IMG/VR virus record: IMGVR_UViG_2529292905_000020
Reading direction: 5' to 3' (one strand)
Source of the DNA: a virus
Lineage: Duplodnaviria > Heunggongvirae > Uroviricota > Caudoviricetes
DNA: 25,360 nucleotides
Both the position numbers and the translations under genes were made by a program. How positions within the stretch are numbered: position 1 is the stretch's first letter; every line of letters starts with the position of its first letter. This document shows positions 1,575 to 17,811 of this stretch, one piece after another. Under the pieces are notes generated by a model that was not told the DNA's origin, ran no database searches, and worked only from the letters and a program-made list of their open reading frames with translations.

Positions 1575-4046
1575 TTAAAAATCAGCCTGATTCGGGAGCA
1601 GTTTTTGCCAGATAGTTGAAACGTATTTTGCCTGGTAACGGGCATCATCCAGCGCATTGTGGCGCTCACCTTCGAATGGGATAGCAGTTCTGGCATCGAA
1701 GTCTACGGCTTTCCCCAGCTCAACGATTGTGCGTACATCGCGATCGTTGCAGTAGCGCCACGGGCAGGGGATACCCTGTCGTTCGTATGAACGGCGCAAA
1801 ATAGTGTTGTCGAAGTTGGCCCCATTACCCCAGACCTGAACAAAAAACTCACCGGAGTTTTCGTCGATAAATTCCCGCAATTGCAGTAGTGCATCATCTA
1901 ACGGGATTTCATCGGTCATAATGGCAGACTGCGCTTCACGTGATTGCTTCAGCCACCATTTAATGACGTCACGATCAATGACTCCGCCAGCAGTATCCAG
2001 ATCGATGGTCTTGCTAAATTCTGGTCCCATATCTCCGGTTTGCGGATCGAAAAATATTGCGCCTATTGAGATAATCGGGGCATCGGGATTTTTTCCCATG
2101 GTTTCAAGGTCGATCATCAGATGAATCCCCGCTCTGCTGGTGGATGTGAGATTATGATGACTGTTCGCCTTAATTAAGGGATCTGACGCCTCGCCAGTTT
2201 CACTATCGCTGGCATGATGCTGATTGCCGCCAGTGTTCTCCTTGTGCTGATGTGCAGTACCTTCCATTTCCTCCGGATCATTTTCCTGAACTTCAGGCTG
2301 ATTCTCTTCATCGAATATTTCCTGGTATGTTGCGTCGCCCATCACCGCGCCACAATCAGGGCAGTTGCCGCCGCCGGTCTGACCGCAGGCGGTGCAGACT
2401 TTTTCCACTTCCTGTTGCGCCACTGGTTCAGGCTGTTTCGTTTCTGGCTCGTTTTGTAACGCATTTGGGCTGTTTTGTTCCGCTTTCTGGTCGTTCTGTT
2501 CCGTTTCTTGCTGGTTCTGGTTCACAGAATCGCGGGTTTCAATCCCCTTCACCCATTTCGGATCATTCGGGTCGCTAATCCCTGCAACAAATTCACCACG
2601 TGATGCGGCGAGCAACTGATTGGCGTCAGGCTGGCTGATATTGGCTGCCTGCATAATTTTCTTTACTTCGTCAGCGGTAACTTTTACCGGTTCTGGTTGT
2701 TCAGAATTTTGTGCGGTATTTGCATTTTGCGGTAAGCCTGTGTATGTGCCATTTTTTCGGGCAAAATATTCTTCTTTTGTGATTTCAGTAGCCCCGGCAG
2801 CCAGCGCCTTATCCAGACCAGAAAGTTTGTTTGCGCGACCGTATTTTTCGCAATCCTTGTCGGTGAAGAGGAAGTAGAACGGCCCCTCACGCTCTACAGA
2901 TGGTTCGACTTCCACTTTGCATTCGGTTTTTTCGTTGTCCGGAATTGCCGTTTCCACTGCATCAGTTTCTGGTACTGGCGACGAGAGAGTATCAGTTGCG
3001 CTCTGATTTCTTCCTTCATCTTCAAACACGCCCTTTGTAGTCAGGTATTCAGTAATGTATTTGTTCAGTGCCACAGGGTCTTTGTGAATGTCGATCGGAC
3101 GTTCACGGATAAGGCCAAAAATAGTCTGGCGGTCGTAGCGAAGGGCATCAGGCTGTTTGCGCATTGATGCCGAGATACGCTTCCAGTCTTCGCGGTCGTT
3201 GTCGATAACTTCATTTTTTGCCCAGCGATGGATGCTGCCGTCAATGTTTCCGGCATCCACATCACCAGGCCAGAGAGCGTAGGCCAGTTCGTCATCCAGT
3301 GTTTTCCATGTCTGCTTGTATTCGCGATGAATGGCAGCAATGACCGGGTTGATTTTTCCTGTTGAATTTTCAGTGTGCTGTTGATTGGCTCTGGCGCGGG
3401 CGAGATCAACAACAGACGTGTATTTTCCGGCTTCCTTGCGTTCACCTTCGCGACGTTTTTTCCAGATGCGCATCTCTGCCTGAATTTCGGGCCATTTGGC
3501 ACCAGGCTTACATTTATGCTTAACCCACCCGATGGCATGCAGCTTAAGCTCCGGATACATAGCGTTAACTTCTGGCATTTTCATCAACGCTTCAACGATA
3601 TGGCCGTCGAATGTTGCCATGTCTTCCTGCAACAATTCCTGTGCGCTAATCACCATATCAACAGTGATGTTTTCACATGTGTCGAACTTAACCATGACAG
3701 CGTTCTGTACTTCAGGGGCCAGCTTGTCAAAAGCGACGTTCATCGGATCTGATTCAGTCTCAACCGGGACAAAGGAAGCAGCCCCCTCATCCCAGCGGTT
3801 TTCCTGCATATATTCAGCATCCCAGGAATCGAGGGCAGGGCGGGGTATACCGGGTTTATCCTCGCAAACAAGAAATTTATAAGCGCAGTCCTGAGCAGCC
3901 GGATAATGCTCCAGGAATTGCCAGTGAAATTTTGCGCGGGCGCGACGTTCATCACCGGCTTCAATGGCAGTGGCTACAGCGACTGCACCTTCTTCCTTTA
4001 TTGCCTGTTCGTCCGGAATGGCGGCGCAAATAAAGACTTTACTCAT
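1575..4046 (-). CDS. Prophage exonuclease with C-terminal DnaQ-like (DEDDh) 3'-5' exonuclease domain
   Basis: 823-aa ORF. C-terminal ~180 aa carry Exo I/II/III-like motifs (MIDLETMG, WGNGANFD, HNALDDARY). Central CTACGQTGGGNCPDCG looks like a zinc ribbon, flanked by Q/E/N-rich linkers. N-terminal ~500 aa have no motif I recognise. Sits at the lambda exo position. Confidence 0.8.
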   Translation of the reverse strand: MSKVFICAAIPDEQAIKEEGAVAVATAIEAGDERRARAKFHWQFLEHYPAAQDCAYKFLVCEDKPGIPRPALDSWDAEYMQENRWDEGAASFVPVETESDPMNVAFDKLAPEVQNAVMVKFDTCENITVDMVISAQELLQEDMATFDGHIVEALMKMPEVNAMYPELKLHAIGWVKHKCKPGAKWPEIQAEMRIWKKRREGERKEAGKYTSVVDLARARANQQHTENSTGKINPVIAAIHREYKQTWKTLDDELAYALWPGDVDAGNIDGSIHRWAKNEVIDNDREDWKRISASMRKQPDALRYDRQTIFGLIRERPIDIHKDPVALNKYITEYLTTKGVFEDEGRNQSATDTLSSPVPETDAVETAIPDNEKTECKVEVEPSVEREGPFYFLFTDKDCEKYGRANKLSGLDKALAAGATEITKEEYFARKNGTYTGLPQNANTAQNSEQPEPVKVTADEVKKIMQAANISQPDANQLLAASRGEFVAGISDPNDPKWVKGIETRDSVNQNQQETEQNDQKAEQNSPNALQNEPETKQPEPVAQQEVEKVCTACGQTGGGNCPDCGAVMGDATYQEIFDEENQPEVQENDPEEMEGTAHQHKENTGGNQHHASDSETGEASDPLIKANSHHNLTSTSRAGIHLMIDLETMGKNPDAPIISIGAIFFDPQTGDMGPEFSKTIDLDTAGGVIDRDVIKWWLKQSREAQSAIMTDEIPLDDALLQLREFIDENSGEFFVQVWGNGANFDNTILRRSYERQGIPCPWRYCNDRDVRTIVELGKAVDFDARTAIPFEGERHNALDDARYQAKYVSTIWQKLLPNQADF

Positions 4047-4138
4047 TTTGTTTTACCTCATTACAGATTTAAGGGTGAACAAATCCCTGCCATTGCTGGC
4101 ATATAAGAATGAAATCGGATGTTTATTACGGAACTGTT

Positions 4139-4330
4139 TTAAAGACCTGCCGGGATTTCGTTATTATCCTGGTGAATAACTTTATCGACCGGGTAACAGT
4201 TACCGGGAATTTTCTGTTCGGTTGCTGCAGTCACACACTCCTGCATTGTCCTGTGAACACTGACTGCAATATCAACTGGCTCTCCGGAAACAAGAAAAAC
4301 TGTCAGAACAAGTGCAAATGCTGTATTCAT
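4139..4330 (-). CDS. ydfD: YdfD-like small protein (63 aa)
   Basis: Start chosen at internal ATG 4330 (MNTAFALVLTVFLVSG..., hydrophobic N-terminus), with AGGA 8 nt upstream. ATGA start/stop overlap with dicB. Sequence matches my recollection of Qin-prophage YdfD. Confidence 0.7.
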   Translation of the reverse strand: MNTAFALVLTVFLVSGEPVDIAVSVHRTMQECVTAATEQKIPGNCYPVDKVIHQDNNEIPAGL

Positions 4331-4515
4331 TGCCAGCATCCTTTTTGTATCGGACGTAAACGGGCCAGCATTGAAAGAATGCATATTTTATTTAATAACT
4401 CCCGTTCGTGTTTTCTCTTGTTAATGGCATCTTCAGTAAATACAGGGTTACTGATAGTGACACCAATTTCAAAACAACCTTCAGACGTATTAACGTTTGG
4501 TAATAACGTTTCCAT
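4327..4515 (-). CDS. dicB: DicB cell-division inhibitor (62 aa)
   Basis: METLLPNVNTSEGCFEIGVTISNPVFTEDAINKRKHERELLNKICILSMLARL... matches remembered DicB. GAGGA 7 nt upstream of ATG 4515. The ORF-track start at 4620 is probably an upstream extension. Confidence 0.85.
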   Translation of the reverse strand: METLLPNVNTSEGCFEIGVTISNPVFTEDAINKRKHERELLNKICILSMLARLRPIQKGCWQ

Positions 4516-4684
4516 TATCGCGTCCTCAACAATGAATTTTGTGATGCGGTGCCTGGTGCCTCCAGGTGACGTTAACCAGTTAACAATTAACGCCGGATAC
4601 AGTGAATCCCCCCATAACACTGTTTTTAGCTTTAACTGTTCCGCGTGCGCTTAGCCGCATTCACTGCATCACAAAATTCACTTT

Positions 4685-4740
4685 AAAAAGGGCGGACATC
4701 AGTTCATGGGCAAACAGATGCCGCCAAACGTCACCAGAAA
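4685..4740 (-). ncRNA. dicF: DicF-like small RNA
   Basis: Minus strand reads UUUCUGGUGACGUUUGGCGG (matches the DicF 5' region as I recall it), then a GGCGGCAUC...GAUGUCCGCC stem and CUUUUU. Lies just upstream of dicB as in Qin. Exact 5' and 3' ends are inferred. Confidence 0.75.
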
Positions 4741-5073
4741 ATTGATAACAGAGGGCGTTGCAGCGGGGTTGTCACTTAAGCGTATGGTCAACCTGACAAC
4801 CCGGTGTCCTCAACGGGGAAGGAATAACCCCGCCATACTTACCGCTGCGCCATTTCGCGGAGTGCCACAACCGGAAGCGCACGGTCGACGAAAATTTAAC
4901 GACAGGCTATCTATGAACCAGCAACCTCGCCGTGCGCTTTCGCGTTATGCTCTGACTTTTCAGAGAAATATCCTTTCAGTAAACTGTCAGTGCCGGATGT
5001 TCACCCGTGTCCGGCGCACGCACTCCACTTCACCCGTGGAGAACTCCTTAATTACCAACCCTCAGGAGGGTGA

Positions 5074-5307
5074 ATGTTAAAATCAACTCTTATTGCTAAA
5101 TGCCTTTATCAAAATCGCATGGTAAGCAGCATTTCAATAGGCGAGTCTGCAGTTAAAAGTATTTTCGAAGAGTACTTTCCCGGGCATGATTTTAATAAAT
5201 GGAATACCAAATTACCGCCAGCAGTTTCAACGCGTATTCTGAAAGCAACCGAAAGAGCAAGTACAATTCGCGTTAACTATTTCATTAAAGATTTGTGGGA
5301 TCTTTGA
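5074..5307 (+). CDS. Hypothetical protein (77 aa), antisense to the dicB operon
   Basis: ORF with AGGAGG 4 nt upstream of ATG 5074. AT-rich. 3' end overlaps the convergent 135-aa ORF by 23 nt. No recognised family. Confidence 0.3.
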   Translation: MLKSTLIAKCLYQNRMVSSISIGESAVKSIFEEYFPGHDFNKWNTKLPPAVSTRILKATERASTIRVNYFIKDLWDL

Positions 5308-5692
5308 TATCCACAGAGCCTAAAGTATGTGCATATGGATGTGCTATTATGCGCCCTCGCAGATTTGCATCATTTTCTAAATTCACTGAACGAAACAGGG
5401 CATCAACAAGGCTCTGTACAATGCAAAGGCAATCGAAGACTGTCGCCGTTTCTGTTTTGATTGATGAAAGAACATGGCCATTCACGCAAACAGAAATTAC
5501 CCGTTTATTAACATCGCTTTCCTGCTTTTGATTATCAGAACCATATAGCCCAGAAAAAGCATTGCGCACATTACGAACCATATTATCGATGGTTTCTTTT
5601 TCTGCGGTACTAAGGTCAAGAGTAGCCAGTTGTGAACGAACTATATTCGATGCCATTTCCTGTAATGGCGTTGGTAAATCTTTAAATTCCAT
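5285..5692 (-). CDS. Hypothetical protein (135 aa), AT-rich insert in the dicB operon
   Basis: ORF starts 20 nt downstream of ydfC with GAGG about 8 nt upstream of ATG 5692. AT-rich relative to neighbours. No recognised motif. Confidence 0.55.
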   Translation of the reverse strand: MEFKDLPTPLQEMASNIVRSQLATLDLSTAEKETIDNMVRNVRNAFSGLYGSDNQKQESDVNKRVISVCVNGHVLSSIKTETATVFDCLCIVQSLVDALFRSVNLENDANLRGRIIAHPYAHTLGSVDIKDPTNL

Positions 5693-5714
5693 TATTAGCC
5701 TCGTTGGTTAGCTA

Positions 5715-5933
5715 TTAACGTGGGTATGTAATCATTCTGGCAATGCTTAATGCCGCTGCTTTTTCCAGATTGGTGATATCCTGCTCCAGAGCGGACAGAT
5801 TTTCAGCCTGCTTAGCCCTGGCTTCATTGGCCCATTTCAGGTCCTGCACCGCCTTAATTTTCTGGTGCATCCACTCATAAAGTTCATCATCGGTATAGTC
5901 TGGCGCGATGATGACGGGGGCTCGTTTCTGCAT
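5715..5933 (-). CDS. ydfC: YdfC-like protein (72 aa)
   Basis: MQKRAPVIIAPDYTDDELYEWM...LSIARMITYPR matches my recollection of Qin YdfC. Same operon position. Confidence 0.7.
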   Translation of the reverse strand: MQKRAPVIIAPDYTDDELYEWMHQKIKAVQDLKWANEARAKQAENLSALEQDITNLEKAAALSIARMITYPR

Positions 5934-6005
5934 GTCGGCTCCTTGTGGTTAGCGTTGCCTGCTTTTTAACCACGTCAGGCGAGGTGGTATCCTCTGAGGG
6001 GTCTG

Positions 6006-6362
6006 TTACTCGAGAGGAAATTGGTTATGAATACAATCAAGTTTTCTTGCCCAGAATGTGGTGGCTAAGTCTTTGACACATCCTTTAAGCCGCAGGGCTC
6101 TGACAGTTTCGCGGGAGCCATCTGCAAAAATTGTGGTCACCTTGTAACTGAAGATGAGTCCTCGCAGTTCGATGACGAAATCGTTGACAATATCTTCGGT
6201 GCACTCACCAGAGACTTTCTGAAGTAAAGGCGCATACCGCTTAGTTACCGCTCTGATAACTCTTACCTGTCCGGCAATGGCGCTGATATCAATATAAAGC
6301 GCCATCGCTGTTTCTTTGCTGATCCCTGGACGCCTTCCATTCTGATGTTTGACTTCGCCCAC
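6006..6362 (-). CDS. Hypothetical protein (118 aa), first gene of the dicB-type operon
   Basis: GTG start at 6362 with GAGGA about 8 nt upstream. Possibly corresponds to the ydfA/ydfB region of K-12 Qin as a single ORF. Confidence 0.55.
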   Translation of the reverse strand: MGEVKHQNGRRPGISKETAMALYIDISAIAGQVRVIRAVTKRYAPLLQKVSGECTEDIVNDFVIELRGLIFSYKVTTIFADGSRETVRALRLKGCVKDLATTFWARKLDCIHNQFPLE

Positions 6363-6568: not shown

Positions 6569-6976
6569 TTATTTATTTGCGCTTCTTTTGCGAGCTTTGA
6601 GTAGTTCTTCAAAAAGTTTGTTGAAATTCTCAACTCGAGCACGCATCTCTGACAACAGAGCCTTTTGCTCTGACTCAGGCAGTGCGTCGAACAGTTGAAG
6701 CAACTCTTTTTGATCTTCTGTCAGATTGACTGGCTGATTATCTGGGATCGGTTCGCCTGGTTGCTTATCTTCATCTCCAAAAAGAAGCCAAGTCGGCGAG
6801 CACTGAAGCGCCTGGCTCAGTGCGAATAATCTCTTCCCCGCTGGCTGTGTTTCATCTCTTTCCCATTGAGAAATTGTTACGTGAGCCACTTTGACCAGCT
6901 TACCTAATGCGGCCTGAGACAGTTTTAATTTTTTTCGCCTGTATAAGAGGCGAGCACCGAAGGTTTCGTTTTTCAT
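6569..6976 (-). CDS. dicA: DicA repressor (HTH XRE family, cI-like)
   Basis: 135-aa ORF MKNETFGARLLYRRKKLKLSQAALGKLVKVAHVTISQWERDETQP... with a clear HTH motif. Divergent from dicC. Confidence 0.9.
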   Translation of the reverse strand: MKNETFGARLLYRRKKLKLSQAALGKLVKVAHVTISQWERDETQPAGKRLFALSQALQCSPTWLLFGDEDKQPGEPIPDNQPVNLTEDQKELLQLFDALPESEQKALLSEMRARVENFNKLFEELLKARKRSANK

Positions 6977-7052: not shown

Positions 7053-7280
7053 ATGTTGAAAATTGATGCTATAGCGTTTTTTGGCAGCAAAACAAAGCTT
7101 GCCAATGTCGCAGGAGTTAGGCTGGCAAGCGTTGCTGCATGGGGGGAACTGGTTCCTGAAGGTCGCGCGATGCGCCTGCAAGAGGCATCCGGCGGGGAAC
7201 TTCAGTACGACCCCAAAGTTTATGACGAATATCGTAAGGCAAAGCGGGCGGGGCGGTTGAACAATGAAAATCACCACTGA
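7053..7280 (+). CDS. dicC: DicC (Cro-like regulator)
   Basis: 75-aa ORF MLKIDAIAFFGSKTKLANVAGV... divergent from dicA. AGGGG 6 nt upstream of ATG. Confidence 0.85.
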   Translation: MLKIDAIAFFGSKTKLANVAGVRLASVAAWGELVPEGRAMRLQEASGGELQYDPKVYDEYRKAKRAGRLNNENHH

Positions 7281-11667: not shown

Positions 11668-12002
11668 CATCCTCGTCCTTCAGGACGTGGATTCTTTTTC
11701 CGGATGCCGCGCCAGCGGCATGTAGGGGCAGCTCACAAAACGGAAAAAATTGTACGCTAAGCCTCGCCAGGTGAACTGAATTCATTCCGATATGGGAATT
11801 CCCATATCGGGCGAAAACGGTTTGCTGTAACGGCAGAGTTAAGTAGGATTGCTGCGGGTGCTTGAGGCTATCTGCCTCGGGCATGAACACCAACGGCAGA
11901 TAGATAAAAGCCCCACCCGACTATAAATCGAAGTGAGGCCCCTATATGCTCGTCACATATAGATTGCCTCTTACGGACCGAAAGGTCAAGGAGAAGCAGG
12001 CT

Positions 12003-12158
12003 ATGAAGCAGCAAAAGGCGATGTTAATCGCCCTGATCGTCATCTGTTTAACCGTCATAGTGACGGCACTGGTAACGAGGAAAGACCTCTGCGAGGTACG
12101 AATCCGAACCGGCCAGACGGAGGTCGCTGTCTTCACAGCTTACGAACCTGAGGAGTAA
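12003..12158 (+). CDS. hokD: Hok/Gef-family membrane toxin (51 aa)
   Basis: MKQQKAMLIALIVICLTVIVTALVTRKDLCEVRIRTGQTEVAVFTAYEPEE is a Hok-family sequence, matching my recollection of HokD/RelF. Structured leader and 3' fold-back complement present. Confidence 0.85.
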   Translation: MKQQKAMLIALIVICLTVIVTALVTRKDLCEVRIRTGQTEVAVFTAYEPEE

Positions 12159-12386: not shown

Positions 12387-13274
12387 TCAGGCTGCCAGAT
12401 CATCGTTTCTGATGGAAGCATAATAAGCTTTTTCTGCTTCTGCCGGAGGGATATGACCCAGCCTTCCCAGCAATCGTCGATTGTTATACCAGTCCACCCA
12501 CGTGAGTGTGGCCAGTTCCACTTCTGCACGGTTTTTCCAGCTCTTACGGTGTATTACCTCCGCTTTGTAAAGACCATTGATGCTCTCCGCCATCGCGTTG
12601 TCATACGAGTCACCTGTACTCCCTGTTGATGCCAGCAGTTTTGCTTCTTTTAGTCGCTCCGTATAGGCCAGTGATACATACTGAGAACCTTTATCACTGT
12701 GATGGACTGTGCCGGACGGCCGACGGGCCCACAACGCCTGCTCCAGTGCATCCAGCACGAATGTCGTTTCCATAGACGATGAGACTCGCCACCCCACGAT
12801 GCATCCGGCAAACACATCAATGATGAACGCCACATAGACGAAGCCCTGCCATGTGCTGACGTAAGTAAAATCAGCCACCCACAGCTGGTCAGGACGTTCT
12901 GCCACGAACTGACGGTTTACGCGGTCGCCTGCGGAAACGGCTTTCCGGCTGACGGTAGTACGGACCTTTTTACCCCGGAGAACACCGGCAAGTCCCATAA
13001 CCGCCATGAGGCGCGCCACTGTACATCTGGCCACCCTGATACCTTCGCGTAACAACTGGCGCCAGACTTTACGCACACCGTACACCTGATGATTTTCATC
13101 GTATACGCGCTGTATCTCTCTCTTCAGCCAGTCATCGCGCTGCGCACGGGCACTGCGTTTATCAGGATGATGTCGCTGTTGCTGACAGTGGTAATACGTT
13201 GACGGGGCAATATGCAGTTCACTGCATACCGGTCCGACCCCGTACTGCTCACGCAGCTTATCCAGCAGTGGCAT
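12387..13274 (-). CDS. IS629 transposase OrfB (DDE catalytic domain)
   Basis: 295-aa ORF with the IS3-family OrfB C-terminus (...LGHIPPAEAEKAYYASIRNDDLAA). Confidence 0.9.
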   Translation of the reverse strand: MPLLDKLREQYGVGPVCSELHIAPSTYYHCQQQRHHPDKRSARAQRDDWLKREIQRVYDENHQVYGVRKVWRQLLREGIRVARCTVARLMAVMGLAGVLRGKKVRTTVSRKAVSAGDRVNRQFVAERPDQLWVADFTYVSTWQGFVYVAFIIDVFAGCIVGWRVSSSMETTFVLDALEQALWARRPSGTVHHSDKGSQYVSLAYTERLKEAKLLASTGSTGDSYDNAMAESINGLYKAEVIHRKSWKNRAEVELATLTWVDWYNNRRLLGRLGHIPPAEAEKAYYASIRNDDLAA

Positions 13275-13600
13275 TATTTTTTCCAGAGGCGGTCGAACTC
13301 CGCCTTCGCAAAATAAGCGGAAGCCTGGCGAAGGATATCGTTACTGCGGCGCAGTTCACGATTTTCACGTTCCAGCTCTTTCAGACGCTGACGTTCAGCG
13401 GTGGTGAATCCACCATCACCACTCCCGGTATCCCGCTCATGCTGACGAACCCACACACGCAGAGTCTCTGGCGTACAGCCAATCTTTGGGGCAATGGAAC
13501 AAATTGCCGCCCATTGTGAGTCATATTCGCCCTGACTTTCCAGAACCATACGAACTGCCCGTTGACGGACCTCGGGGGAAAAACGTGTATTTTTAGTCAT
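13274..13600 (-). CDS. IS629 transposase OrfA (HTH)
   Basis: 108-aa [22 protein letters not shown]... matching remembered IS629 OrfA. Its stop overlaps the OrfB ATG (TAATG) beside an A6 run. Confidence 0.9.
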
Positions 13601-16601: not shown

Positions 16602-16677
16602 GGCCCTTTAGCTCAGTGGTGAGAGCGAGCGACTCATAATCGCCAGGTCGCTGGTTCAAATCCAGCAAGGGCCACCA
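16602..16677 (+). tRNA. ileZ: tRNA-Ile2 (anticodon CAU, lysidine type)
   Basis: 76-nt cloverleaf. Acceptor GGCCCTT/AAGGGCC, anticodon loop CUCAUAA, T-loop TTCAAAT, encoded CCA. Closely resembles E. coli ileX. Confidence 0.9.
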
Positions 16678-16680
16678 ACC

Positions 16681-16754
16681 GCCACCAGCCATCAGGAAAG
16701 AGCGTCAACCCTTTAAGTTGAGTGTGCGAGGTTCGAGTCCCCGGTGGTGGTCCA
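16681..16754 (+). tRNA. Atypical tRNA-like sequence (degenerate argN-like?)
   Basis: Acceptor and T-arm can be drawn (T-loop TTCGAGT). Anticodon stem TCAAC/GTTGA with loop CCTTTAA (C at position 33, anticodon UUU by position). No canonical D-stem. Identity uncertain. Confidence 0.35.
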
Positions 16755-16767
16755 TTATCGGTATTCT

Positions 16768-16841
16768 GCGTTGTTAGCTCAGCAGGACAGAGCAATTGCC
16801 TTCTAAGCAATCGGTCACTGGTTCGACTCCAGTACAACGCG
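16768..16841 (+). tRNA. argO: tRNA-Arg (anticodon UCU)
   Basis: 74-nt cloverleaf. Acceptor GCGTTGT/ACAACGC, D-stem GCTC/GAGC, anticodon stem ATTGC/GCAAT with loop CTTCTAA, T-arm ACTGG-TTCGACT-CCAGT. 3' CCA not encoded. The argO name is positional (third tRNA of the Stx-phage-type trio). Confidence 0.85.
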
Positions 16842-17610: not shown

Positions 17611-17811
17611 TTTTTTTGTTTGCTGTTTATTAAAAACACTTCTGCATGGTGAATCCCCCTGTGCGGTGGGGCAATCAGCAAGAAGGAATATGGGGTAATC
17701 GCGGATTCAGGTGCTGATACTGAATTCACCGGGAGGCACCCGGCACCATGCTTTGCCACAAAAGTGTTATTTCTGTTTTTCTCAAACTATCATCGTTATC
17801 CCTTTATTTTC

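Follow-up and report, generated by a model that had tools for sequence, protein, structure and literature searches.

What are two small convergent genes doing inside the early operon of a lambdoid prophage, and do they belong together? The question is raised by a stretch of 25,360 nucleotides (nt) from a virus of the Caudoviricetes (IMG/VR record IMGVR_UViG_2529292905_000020; the window, in the following), whose minus strand carries a dicB-type early operon of a lambdoid prophage. Between ydfC and the small RNA (sRNA) DicF of this operon lie two open reading frames (ORFs) that overlap tail to tail, ORF135 with 135 amino acids (aa) and ORF77 with 77 aa. An earlier note, made from the letters alone, had pointed to this convergent pair, and the coordinates and strands of both ORFs, the AGGAGG upstream of ORF77 and the 23-nt overlap of the 3' ends are as it described them (Table 1); to be added is that, as the operon runs on the minus strand, ORF135 lies in sense with it and ORF77 in antisense. 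Comparison of homologous loci indicates that ORF77 (gene A) and the C-terminal domain of ORF135 (B) represent a prophage-restricted convergent two-gene unit which is conserved across Enterobacterales.

Both ORF77 and ORF135 are genuine genes, because they are called by RefSeq (each as a hypothetical protein), belong to PHROG families and are under purifying selection across genera. The ORF77 product is all-helical and 100% identical to ECs1762 of Escherichia coli O157:H7 Sakai. We found 33 homologues with 55-72% identity, nearly always 77 aa long, in at least ten genera, with Klebsiella, Raoultella, Dickeya, Xenorhabdus, Salmonella, Morganella, Yersinia and Serratia among the sources; locus scans extended the family to Proteus and Photorhabdus. 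The family alignment has 20 invariant columns, and the median ratio of nonsynonymous to synonymous substitution rates (dN/dS) of 0.13 across 18 distinct loci shows purifying selection across genera. An AlphaFold2 model was compact with five helices and a predicted local distance difference test score (pLDDT) of 96.7, a fold for which the structure search returned no counterpart, and the grand average of hydropathy of -0.13 suggests a soluble protein. The only PHROG family of ORF77 is phrog_10348, which carries no functional annotation. Profile and structure searches of the kind that the earlier note had proposed bore out its statement that no family is recognisable: neither ORF77 nor ORF135 had a match in Pfam, NCBIfam, PADLOC or the PDB in sequence and profile searches with every alignment member scanned, and ORF77 contained no recognisable RNA-binding domain or fold (Hfq, ProQ/FinO, CsrA, KH, S1, Rop and others).

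We scanned the six-frame ORFs of 104 fetched loci with hidden Markov models for A, for B and for the N-terminal module of ORF135 (N-module). Each A with a readable 3' flank faced a B ORF, with a homologue in Psychrosphaera as the sole exception, and the two genes overlapped at their 3' ends by 23 nt, or by 26 nt in two loci. Such pairs were found in Escherichia, Klebsiella, Serratia, Dickeya, Proteus and Photorhabdus as well as on IMG/VR contigs. In prophages of Klebsiella, Serratia and Dickeya the ORF77 homologue lies opposite a B gene encoding 77-79 aa, with 32-41% identity to residues 62-135 of ORF135. Distances between loci correlated for A and B with r = 0.85 (18 distinct pairs). On the strength of these comparisons we regard the A-B pair as an ancient unit. 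A spread of the plasmid or addiction type was considered and dismissed, as only one match was to a plasmid. The Psychrosphaera homologue (locus L104, 3989-4228) is distant, with 43% identity, and lies on the chromosome of a marine gammaproteobacterium without B and without prophage context, flanked by genes resembling those for a chemotaxis receptor and a glycosidase.

ORF135 itself is, by its homologies, a fusion of the N-module and the B domain. Relatives of ORF135 in E. coli have about 50 N-terminal residues in common and then continue into unrelated C-termini, with total lengths of 124, 126, 129, 133/137, 135, 201 and 208/212 aa. When 1.84 billion representatives were searched exhaustively with a profile of ORF135, only 49 matches were obtained, and these fell into two classes, the first covering the N-module (positions 1 to about 60) and the second covering positions 58-134, the latter either in stand-alone proteins (78-90 aa) or fused to other N-termini. 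The PHROG matches are divided accordingly, with phrog_6937, phrog_2151 and phrog_9419 within residues 1-63, phrog_33007 extending to residue 72, and phrog_23433 matching residues 55-128. A word-index search with the B domain alone returned only E. coli proteins, the stand-alone B proteins being reached by the exhaustive profile search. The N-module is almost confined to Escherichia, where it is followed, in different proteins, by C-terminal domains of at least five unrelated kinds. For the B domain the median dN/dS was 0.25 (18 distinct loci).

In E. coli this fusion is part of a polymorphic slot. The Qin prophage of K-12 has a ydfC-dicF spacer of 340 nt and no gene in it, in line with the short spacer stated in the earlier note, and in a five-way alignment K-12 matched the window at the ydfC stop region and in the leader ahead of DicF, lacking the cassette in between. 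We counted the slot variants in 5426 complete E. coli genomes. The cassette core of the window was present in 649 of these, with at least 99% identity in 588, and a 751-bp query across the cassette (5000-5750) was 100% identical in Shiga toxin-producing E. coli (STEC) of O157:H7, O26, O103 and O145. The proposal of a strain-specific insert thus did not stand. The window further matched PPompW prophages, phage Evi and prophage Sp9 of Sakai, in which ORF77 and ORF135 correspond to ECs1762 and ECs1763 with 100% protein identity each. What did stand is the description as a moron-like, AT-rich accessory insert: the GC content is 0.385-0.43 over 5000-5700 and 0.49-0.54 and 0.47-0.53 in the flanks (4700-5000 and 5700-6000), K-12 Qin is without the insert, a ribosome-binding site of its own is found on the opposite strand and the protein has been detected in uninduced Sakai, presumably from a promoter of its own.

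At least five cassettes occupy the slot between ydfC, or an equivalent upstream gene, and the DicF leader. Named by the lengths of the sense and antisense products, these are 135/77 as in the window (phrog_10348; 23-nt overlap; 649 genomes), 208/69 (phrog_4274; genes abutting; 594-600 genomes), 133/~93 (phrog_18692; 41-nt overlap as called in locus L016, where the antisense gene is frameshifted; 125-169 genomes), 124/73 (11-nt overlap; 84-108 genomes) and 201/63 (phrog_2605; 23-nt overlap; 8 genomes). The N-module heads the sense gene in all five. In four of the five the antisense gene begins at one ribosome-binding site (CCTCAGGAGGGTGAA) and 5' untranslated region (UTR) adjoining the leader, and in the 208/69 cassette this ribosome-binding site has diverged at an unchanged position. 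As the N-module and the antisense start site are constant, the exchanged unit consists of the C-terminal domain together with its antisense gene. Pfam detected no domain in any of the sense proteins (124-208 aa) or in the other cassette proteins, and the sense proteins have neither a recognised toxin domain nor a delivery domain.

Two further observations concern the variants of the slot. The N-module is itself mosaic: the window has the TPLQEMASNIVRSQLATLDLS type, like the 133, 208 and 124 cassettes, and many other alleles of the 135-aa and 201-aa proteins have KEIQTIAATTLGDSLVKIDP. The B-domain DNA downstream is near-identical in both types (window 5528-5692 versus 4001-4165 of locus L011), which places a recombination point inside the N-module. 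Antisense genes were frameshifted in a 133 cassette (L016, 3362-3641; 27 + 76 aa versus about 93 aa) and in a 124 cassette (L107, 2927-3085; 52 versus 73 aa), which suggests that the antisense partner is decaying in some cryptic prophages.

How the two genes are expressed can be predicted in part from a Klebsiella locus (L002). An operator-like repeat, ACAGnnnAAACTGT, occurs there at oR in the cI/cro interval and again between cI and B; the terminator of cI lies directly ahead of this second operator set, and a TTGACC-N18-TATTAT promoter directed into B overlaps it. By this arrangement of repeat, terminator and promoter, B is the first gene of a CI-repressed pL operon. In the window B belongs to the operon under DicA control, with ORF135 starting 22 nt past the ydfC stop and having a GAGG ribosome-binding site 7 nt upstream. 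Gene A runs opposite to both operons and must be transcribed from a promoter of its own, which in the window must be expected on the opposite strand inside the DicF leader. Many non-E. coli loci have a promoter-like motif, TTCACC-N16-TGgTATCTT, together with a hairpin 30-70 nt upstream of A. At the 23-nt overlap we found no stable hairpin, with folding z-scores of about 0 on both strands, and a bidirectional terminator between the genes was thereby ruled out. Since the overlap is without a stable hairpin, transcripts of A and B are expected to read into each other.

Independent information on A comes from Sakai. ECs1762 was significantly enriched in the TRAPP RNA-associated proteome of enterohaemorrhagic E. 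coli (EHEC) Sakai, and the tagged protein gave radiolabel above background in an ultraviolet-crosslinking polynucleotide kinase (PNK) assay, without an RNA-binding domain detectable to the authors (PMC7618764, Nucleic Acids Res 2025). For the PNK assay, arabinose-induced ECs1762 was made in Sakai, and the account of that assay does not mention toxicity (PMC7618764). According to this source, the ECs1762 protein is therefore made in cultures which were not deliberately induced, and it contacts RNA (PMC7618764). Literature searches by accession, PHROG identifier and EDL933 locus tags returned nothing on ORF77 or ORF135, and searches by Sakai tags returned the TRAPP paper and typing papers, in which ecs1763 serves as a PCR typing marker for EHEC and is described as a hypothetical protein (PMC4060028, PMC5702452).

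Taken together, the cassette probably holds a lysogen-expressed RNA-binding protein and an early-lytic partner. We infer that A and B alternate in their expression between lysogeny and lytic growth and form a cognate protein pair acting on each other. The reading that we favour, tentatively and short of an even chance, is that A is an effector made in the lysogen, which probably serves exclusion or the control of phage RNA, and that B is its early-lytic antagonist. In a lysogen, A would be driven by its own promoter and B would be silent. A would act on RNA, and hamper either incoming or competing phages or untimely expression of the early operon. Upon induction or infection, early transcription would yield B and would also run head-on through A, shutting off expression of A because a terminator between A and B is missing. 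B would then relieve the lytic cycle of its own phage from A, a form of self-immunity. Diversification of the slot might proceed by recombination between the common N-module and the common antisense 5' UTR.

Several observations weigh against this effector-antagonist reading. On the side of expression, the TTCACC-N16-TGgTATCTT motif is not kept upstream of A in E. coli, a simple scan upstream of ORF77 in the window found no plus-strand sigma-70 consensus with at least 9 of 12 positions, and a spontaneously induced subpopulation in the TRAPP cultures could be the source of the detected protein. On the side of function, the isoelectric point of ORF77 is 9.5 in E. coli and 4.9-9.0 in other homologues; as net charge is not conserved, RNA binding is perhaps allele-specific, non-specific or non-ancestral. 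PADLOC-DB v2 gave no match for ORF77, ORF135, ydfC or the 118-aa ORF of the same operon. As for the partnership, the AlphaFold2 model of ORF135 had a pLDDT of 44, from an alignment limited to close relatives, and was unusable for a fold search, and it thus lends no structural support to an A-B interaction. The correlation of A and B distances is expected from co-inheritance alone. Finally, the 201-aa E. coli variant has B but not A, with another domain downstream of B and an antisense gene of a different kind, and B is thus not strictly dependent on A. A conserved positive charge as the cause of RNA binding was ruled out, since charge varies through the ORF77 family.

The roles might also be reversed. 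B, or each variable C-terminal domain, would then be a host-damaging early effector and the constitutive antisense gene its immunity or antitoxin, with A either neutralising the B protein or binding and destabilising the B mRNA in a manner resembling type V systems. We consider this unlikely, though the architecture of the slot speaks for it: a constant N-terminus joined to changing C-terminal domains, each with its cognate small gene, is the pattern of polymorphic toxins and their immunity proteins, and operons of pore-forming colicins reportedly carry an antisense immunity gene as well. It would also agree with the antisense genes being frameshifted in some decaying prophage loci, with the RNA contact of A (PMC7618764) and with a neighbourhood whose early products DicF, DicB and YdfD are each toxic (PMC5069750). 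Against it speaks the 201-aa variant, in which B is found without A, in 8 genomes and many contigs, a state that should hardly be tolerated if B depended on A for immunity. Moreover, A is the better conserved and compact partner and B the faster-evolving and poorly predicted one, the reverse of what is usual for toxins and antitoxins, and neither resembles a known toxin or antitoxin family.

Quite improbable, in our estimate, is that ORF77 acts as a post-transcriptional regulator of the early-left operon, for example on the DicF precursor or on early-gene translation, with B as an unrelated fellow traveller. ORF77 would in that case provide a second layer of lysogenic silencing. Its crosslinking to RNA without a known RNA-binding domain (PMC7618764) fits such a role, as do its position next to the conserved DicF leader, to which its 5' UTR is complementary, and the conserved hairpin that directly precedes A in many loci. 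However, the charge of A varies through the family, and the joint swapping of the antisense gene and the sense C-terminal domain would be left unexplained. In addition, DicF was not found by Rfam at E <=0.01 in six non-E. coli loci, L002 included, and because A-B pairs outside E. coli are without detectable DicF, a DicF-specific role would not be ancestral.

To the same low degree we believe that A and B are uncoupled, that is, independent accessory genes which are kept adjacent by their overlap, the slot being ordinary lambdoid mosaicism. Lambdoid early regions are mosaic hotspots (PMC8585504), linkage predicts the distance correlation as well as the constant overlap, and B can be found without A. 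The converse, A without B, was seen only once, in the distant homologue outside a prophage. The pair has also been kept despite divergence to 55-60% identity for A and 32-41% for B and despite differing neighbours, and a lack of coupling sits poorly with one site that holds five cassettes of the same sense/antisense design. That ORF77 is a spurious antisense ORF and ORF135 the sole gene, as its shortness, its position antisense to an operon and the lack of a strong predicted promoter might imply, is refuted to near certainty by 33 homologues of constant length with 20 invariant residues, by the dN/dS of 0.13, the pLDDT of 96.7 and the strong ribosome-binding site, and by detection of the protein by mass spectrometry in EHEC (PMC7618764).

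If the favoured reading is right, and a new-fold RNA-binding protein of the lysogen is paired with an early-lytic partner, the cassette would add a module of a new kind to those that give prophages self-immunity or exclusion. A wider proposal, which we regard as doubtful, is that the ydfC-dicF slot hosts an undescribed class of polymorphic 'state-switch' cassettes, each with a small lysogen protein and a cognate domain, produced solely from the early promoter under repressor control, arranged tail to tail in such a way that early transcription would at once provide the antagonist and silence the effector. Such cassettes would represent a general self-immunity design for prophage-encoded exclusion, or for sensing of the prophage state, and the A-B pair would be their ancestral form, spread over Enterobacterales. 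The slot offers ready natural cassette swaps for the study of cognate specificity.

We rate the cassette as a prophage accessory or self-immunity-type cassette in an immunity-proximal hotspot. It is present in about 12% of complete E. coli genomes, near-identical among major STEC serogroups, and its sense gene ecs1763 is an EHEC PCR marker already. The cassette sits in the operon that produces DicF and DicB. DicF reportedly affects EHEC virulence (work of Melson and Kendall, 2019). DicB affects phage resistance (PMC6832061). Already known are the annotation of both genes and the published RNA crosslinking of ECs1762 (PMC7618764). We found no description in the literature of the A-B pairing, the fusion nature of ECs1763, the multi-cassette slot or the sieB-like placement discussed below; a survey of dicBF loci from 2016 drew non-conserved genes as unlabelled boxes (PMC5069750).

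Table 1. Features of the ydfC-dicF slot and its surroundings in the window.
Feature	Position	Strand	Basis or remark
ORF77, gene A (ECs1762, WP_000920491.1, phrog_10348)	ATG 5074 to stop 5307	+	antisense to the dicB operon
ORF135 (ECs1763, WP_000394552.1, phrog_1363)	ATG 5692 to stop 5285	-	sense gene of the dicB operon
N-module of ORF135, residues 1-55, MEFKDLP...GLY	5528-5692	-	predicted helical hairpin; PHROG, homologue and profile matches
B domain of ORF135, residues 62-135 and stop	5285-5509	-	homologous to stand-alone 77-80-aa proteins facing gene A in other genera
Tail-to-tail coding overlap of ORF77 and ORF135	5285-5307	both	23 nt; A ends IKDLWDL*, B ends IKDPTNL*
AGGAGG ribosome-binding site of ORF77	5064-5069	+	4 nt ahead of ATG
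Cassette extent relative to K-12 Qin	~5063-5696 (~634 bp)		alignment with K-12 and four other cassette types
Variable core of the cassette	~5074-5540		same alignment of K-12 and cassette types
Conserved leader of ~320 nt, cassette to DicF	4740-5062	-	common to K-12; invariant alignment columns
DicF sRNA variant	4690-4739	-	Rfam RF00039, 43.5 bits, E = 9.5e-8
dicB, 62 aa (ECs1761)	4327-4515	-	Pfam PF05358, E = 6e-37; annotation
ydfC (ECs1764), operon gene upstream of ORF135	5715-5933	-	ORF list, RefSeq, PHROG
99/118-aa ORF (phrog_21318, ECs_5719)	6006-6362	-	no family match
DicA-like repressor controlling the operon	6569-6976	-	Pfam HTH_3 and P22_Cro; RefSeq annotation
Cro-like gene facing the DicA-like repressor	7053-7280	+	Pfam HTH_3 and P22_Cro; RefSeq annotation

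Past dicB the operon continues with a DUF1482 (ydfD-like) gene and then the gene of an 823-aa exonuclease. The 99/118-aa ORF stands in place of ydfA/ydfB between the repressor and ydfC. In two other loci a toxin-antitoxin (TA) pair of the PaaA2/ParE or HigB type lies between the repressor and a ydfA-like gene (L012, 2694-3172; L108, 1007-1671), so that the repressor-adjoining interval also gathers TA-type modules. A plus-strand ORF of 124 aa (4706-5080), which ends at the ORF77 start codon, was dismissed as a gene because 1-nt indels between variants disrupt its reading frame.

The DicF copy of the window scores below the Rfam gathering threshold (48 bits) because it differs from the K-12 version in the loop of its terminator hairpin, and a default Rfam scan therefore overlooks it. 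Of the 5' single-stranded region of DicF, 9-10 nt are absent in the 201 and 208 variants. Past the A-B pair in the pL direction, the Klebsiella locus L002 has a hairpin with 28-nt arms followed by a GC-rich stem-loop and T-run (4869-4910, minus strand; 4780-4868), resembling the DicF terminator in form. An ancestral link between the A-B pair and DicF was dismissed on the Rfam result for the six non-E. coli loci. The window further contains a full match to the STnc100 sRNA (17615-17787, plus strand, 100.8 bits) and a weaker STnc100-like match over the DicF-dicB spacer and partly on the DicF terminator (4496-4701, minus strand, 32.1 bits with a gathering score of 47). Elsewhere (11856-12005, plus; 13203-13319, minus; 16602-16841, plus) there are a sok antitoxin RNA of the hok/sok type, an IS3-family frameshift pseudoknot (ALIL) and two tRNA genes, the corresponding tRNAs in Sakai Sp9 being annotated as ileZ3 and argO3.

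Among known systems, TA pairs of types II and V such as GhoT/GhoS resemble A-B as small-protein two-gene units on mobile elements in which one partner is well folded and the other poorly ordered, and in which one binds RNA. A-B differs from them in being convergent instead of a co-transcribed bicistronic operon, and neither partner matches a TA family. Nun of phage HK022 excludes a competing phage by acting on its transcripts. Like ORF77, it is a small RNA-binding protein of the lysogen encoded in the early-left region, but Nun has an arginine-rich motif and lies in sense orientation at the position of N, whereas ORF77 is antisense, lacks such a motif and does not conserve its charge.

Operons of pore-forming colicins reportedly have their immunity gene in antisense orientation behind the SOS-induced toxin gene (Colicin biology, as reviewed by Cascales et al. 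in 2007). The slot resembles colicin and polymorphic toxin cassettes in its constant N-terminal part, its variable C-terminal domain and the small gene exchanged along with it, and resembles the colicin layout in having an antisense small gene with its own promoter and a larger gene under an inducible, SOS-linked repressor. Unlike these systems, the slot cassettes lack a lysis gene as well as toxin, translocation and receptor domains, their proteins are tiny, and B may occur without A.

In lambdoid prophages, the cI-N interval is known as a hotspot of defence genes that are expressed in the lysogen and come with self-immunity (PMC8585504). BstA/aba is such a locus, with expression in lysogeny and with a cognate element inside the locus that spares the lytic cycle of the prophage itself (Owen et al. 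2021, PMC8585504). Like the cassette, BstA/aba is an accessory locus adjoining the lambdoid repressor in Salmonella, Klebsiella and Escherichia (PMC8585504). BstA differs from ORF77 in being a large protein co-oriented with cI and without homology to it, and its antidote aba is a 63-bp DNA element; defence by ORF77 is a proposal only.

Closest in layout is the Rac prophage of K-12 (locus L110), in which racR, ydaG and ydaF are followed by sieB on the opposite strand, the sRNA KilS and the FtsZ inhibitor kilR. This order parallels dicA, ydfC, ORF135, ORF77 on the opposite strand, DicF and dicB in the window. Both sieB and ORF77 lie antisense in a repressor-controlled early-left operon, overlap a small early gene at their 3' ends (sieB on the plus and ydaF on the minus strand are convergent with a 4-nt overlap, L110 6672-7312) and are located upstream of an sRNA and a division inhibitor. 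The gene sieB, known from Rac, lambda and P22, serves superinfection exclusion. SieB is described as an inner-membrane protein, annotated with 162 aa in Rac of K-12, whereas ORF77 has 77 aa, is helical and RNA-binding and is probably soluble, and Pfam, NCBIfam, PADLOC and PHROG give no sequence similarity between the two. According to Ranade and Poteete (1993), sieB is expressed by the prophage and the phage has a function for escaping it; Esc, the self-antidote of P22, is an in-frame product of sieB itself, whereas B is a separate convergent gene. Because ORF77 occupies the sieB position of Rac, an exclusion-type role appears plausible by analogy, and the shared arrangement suggests that early operons of the dicB/Rac class have a general 'antisense slot'.

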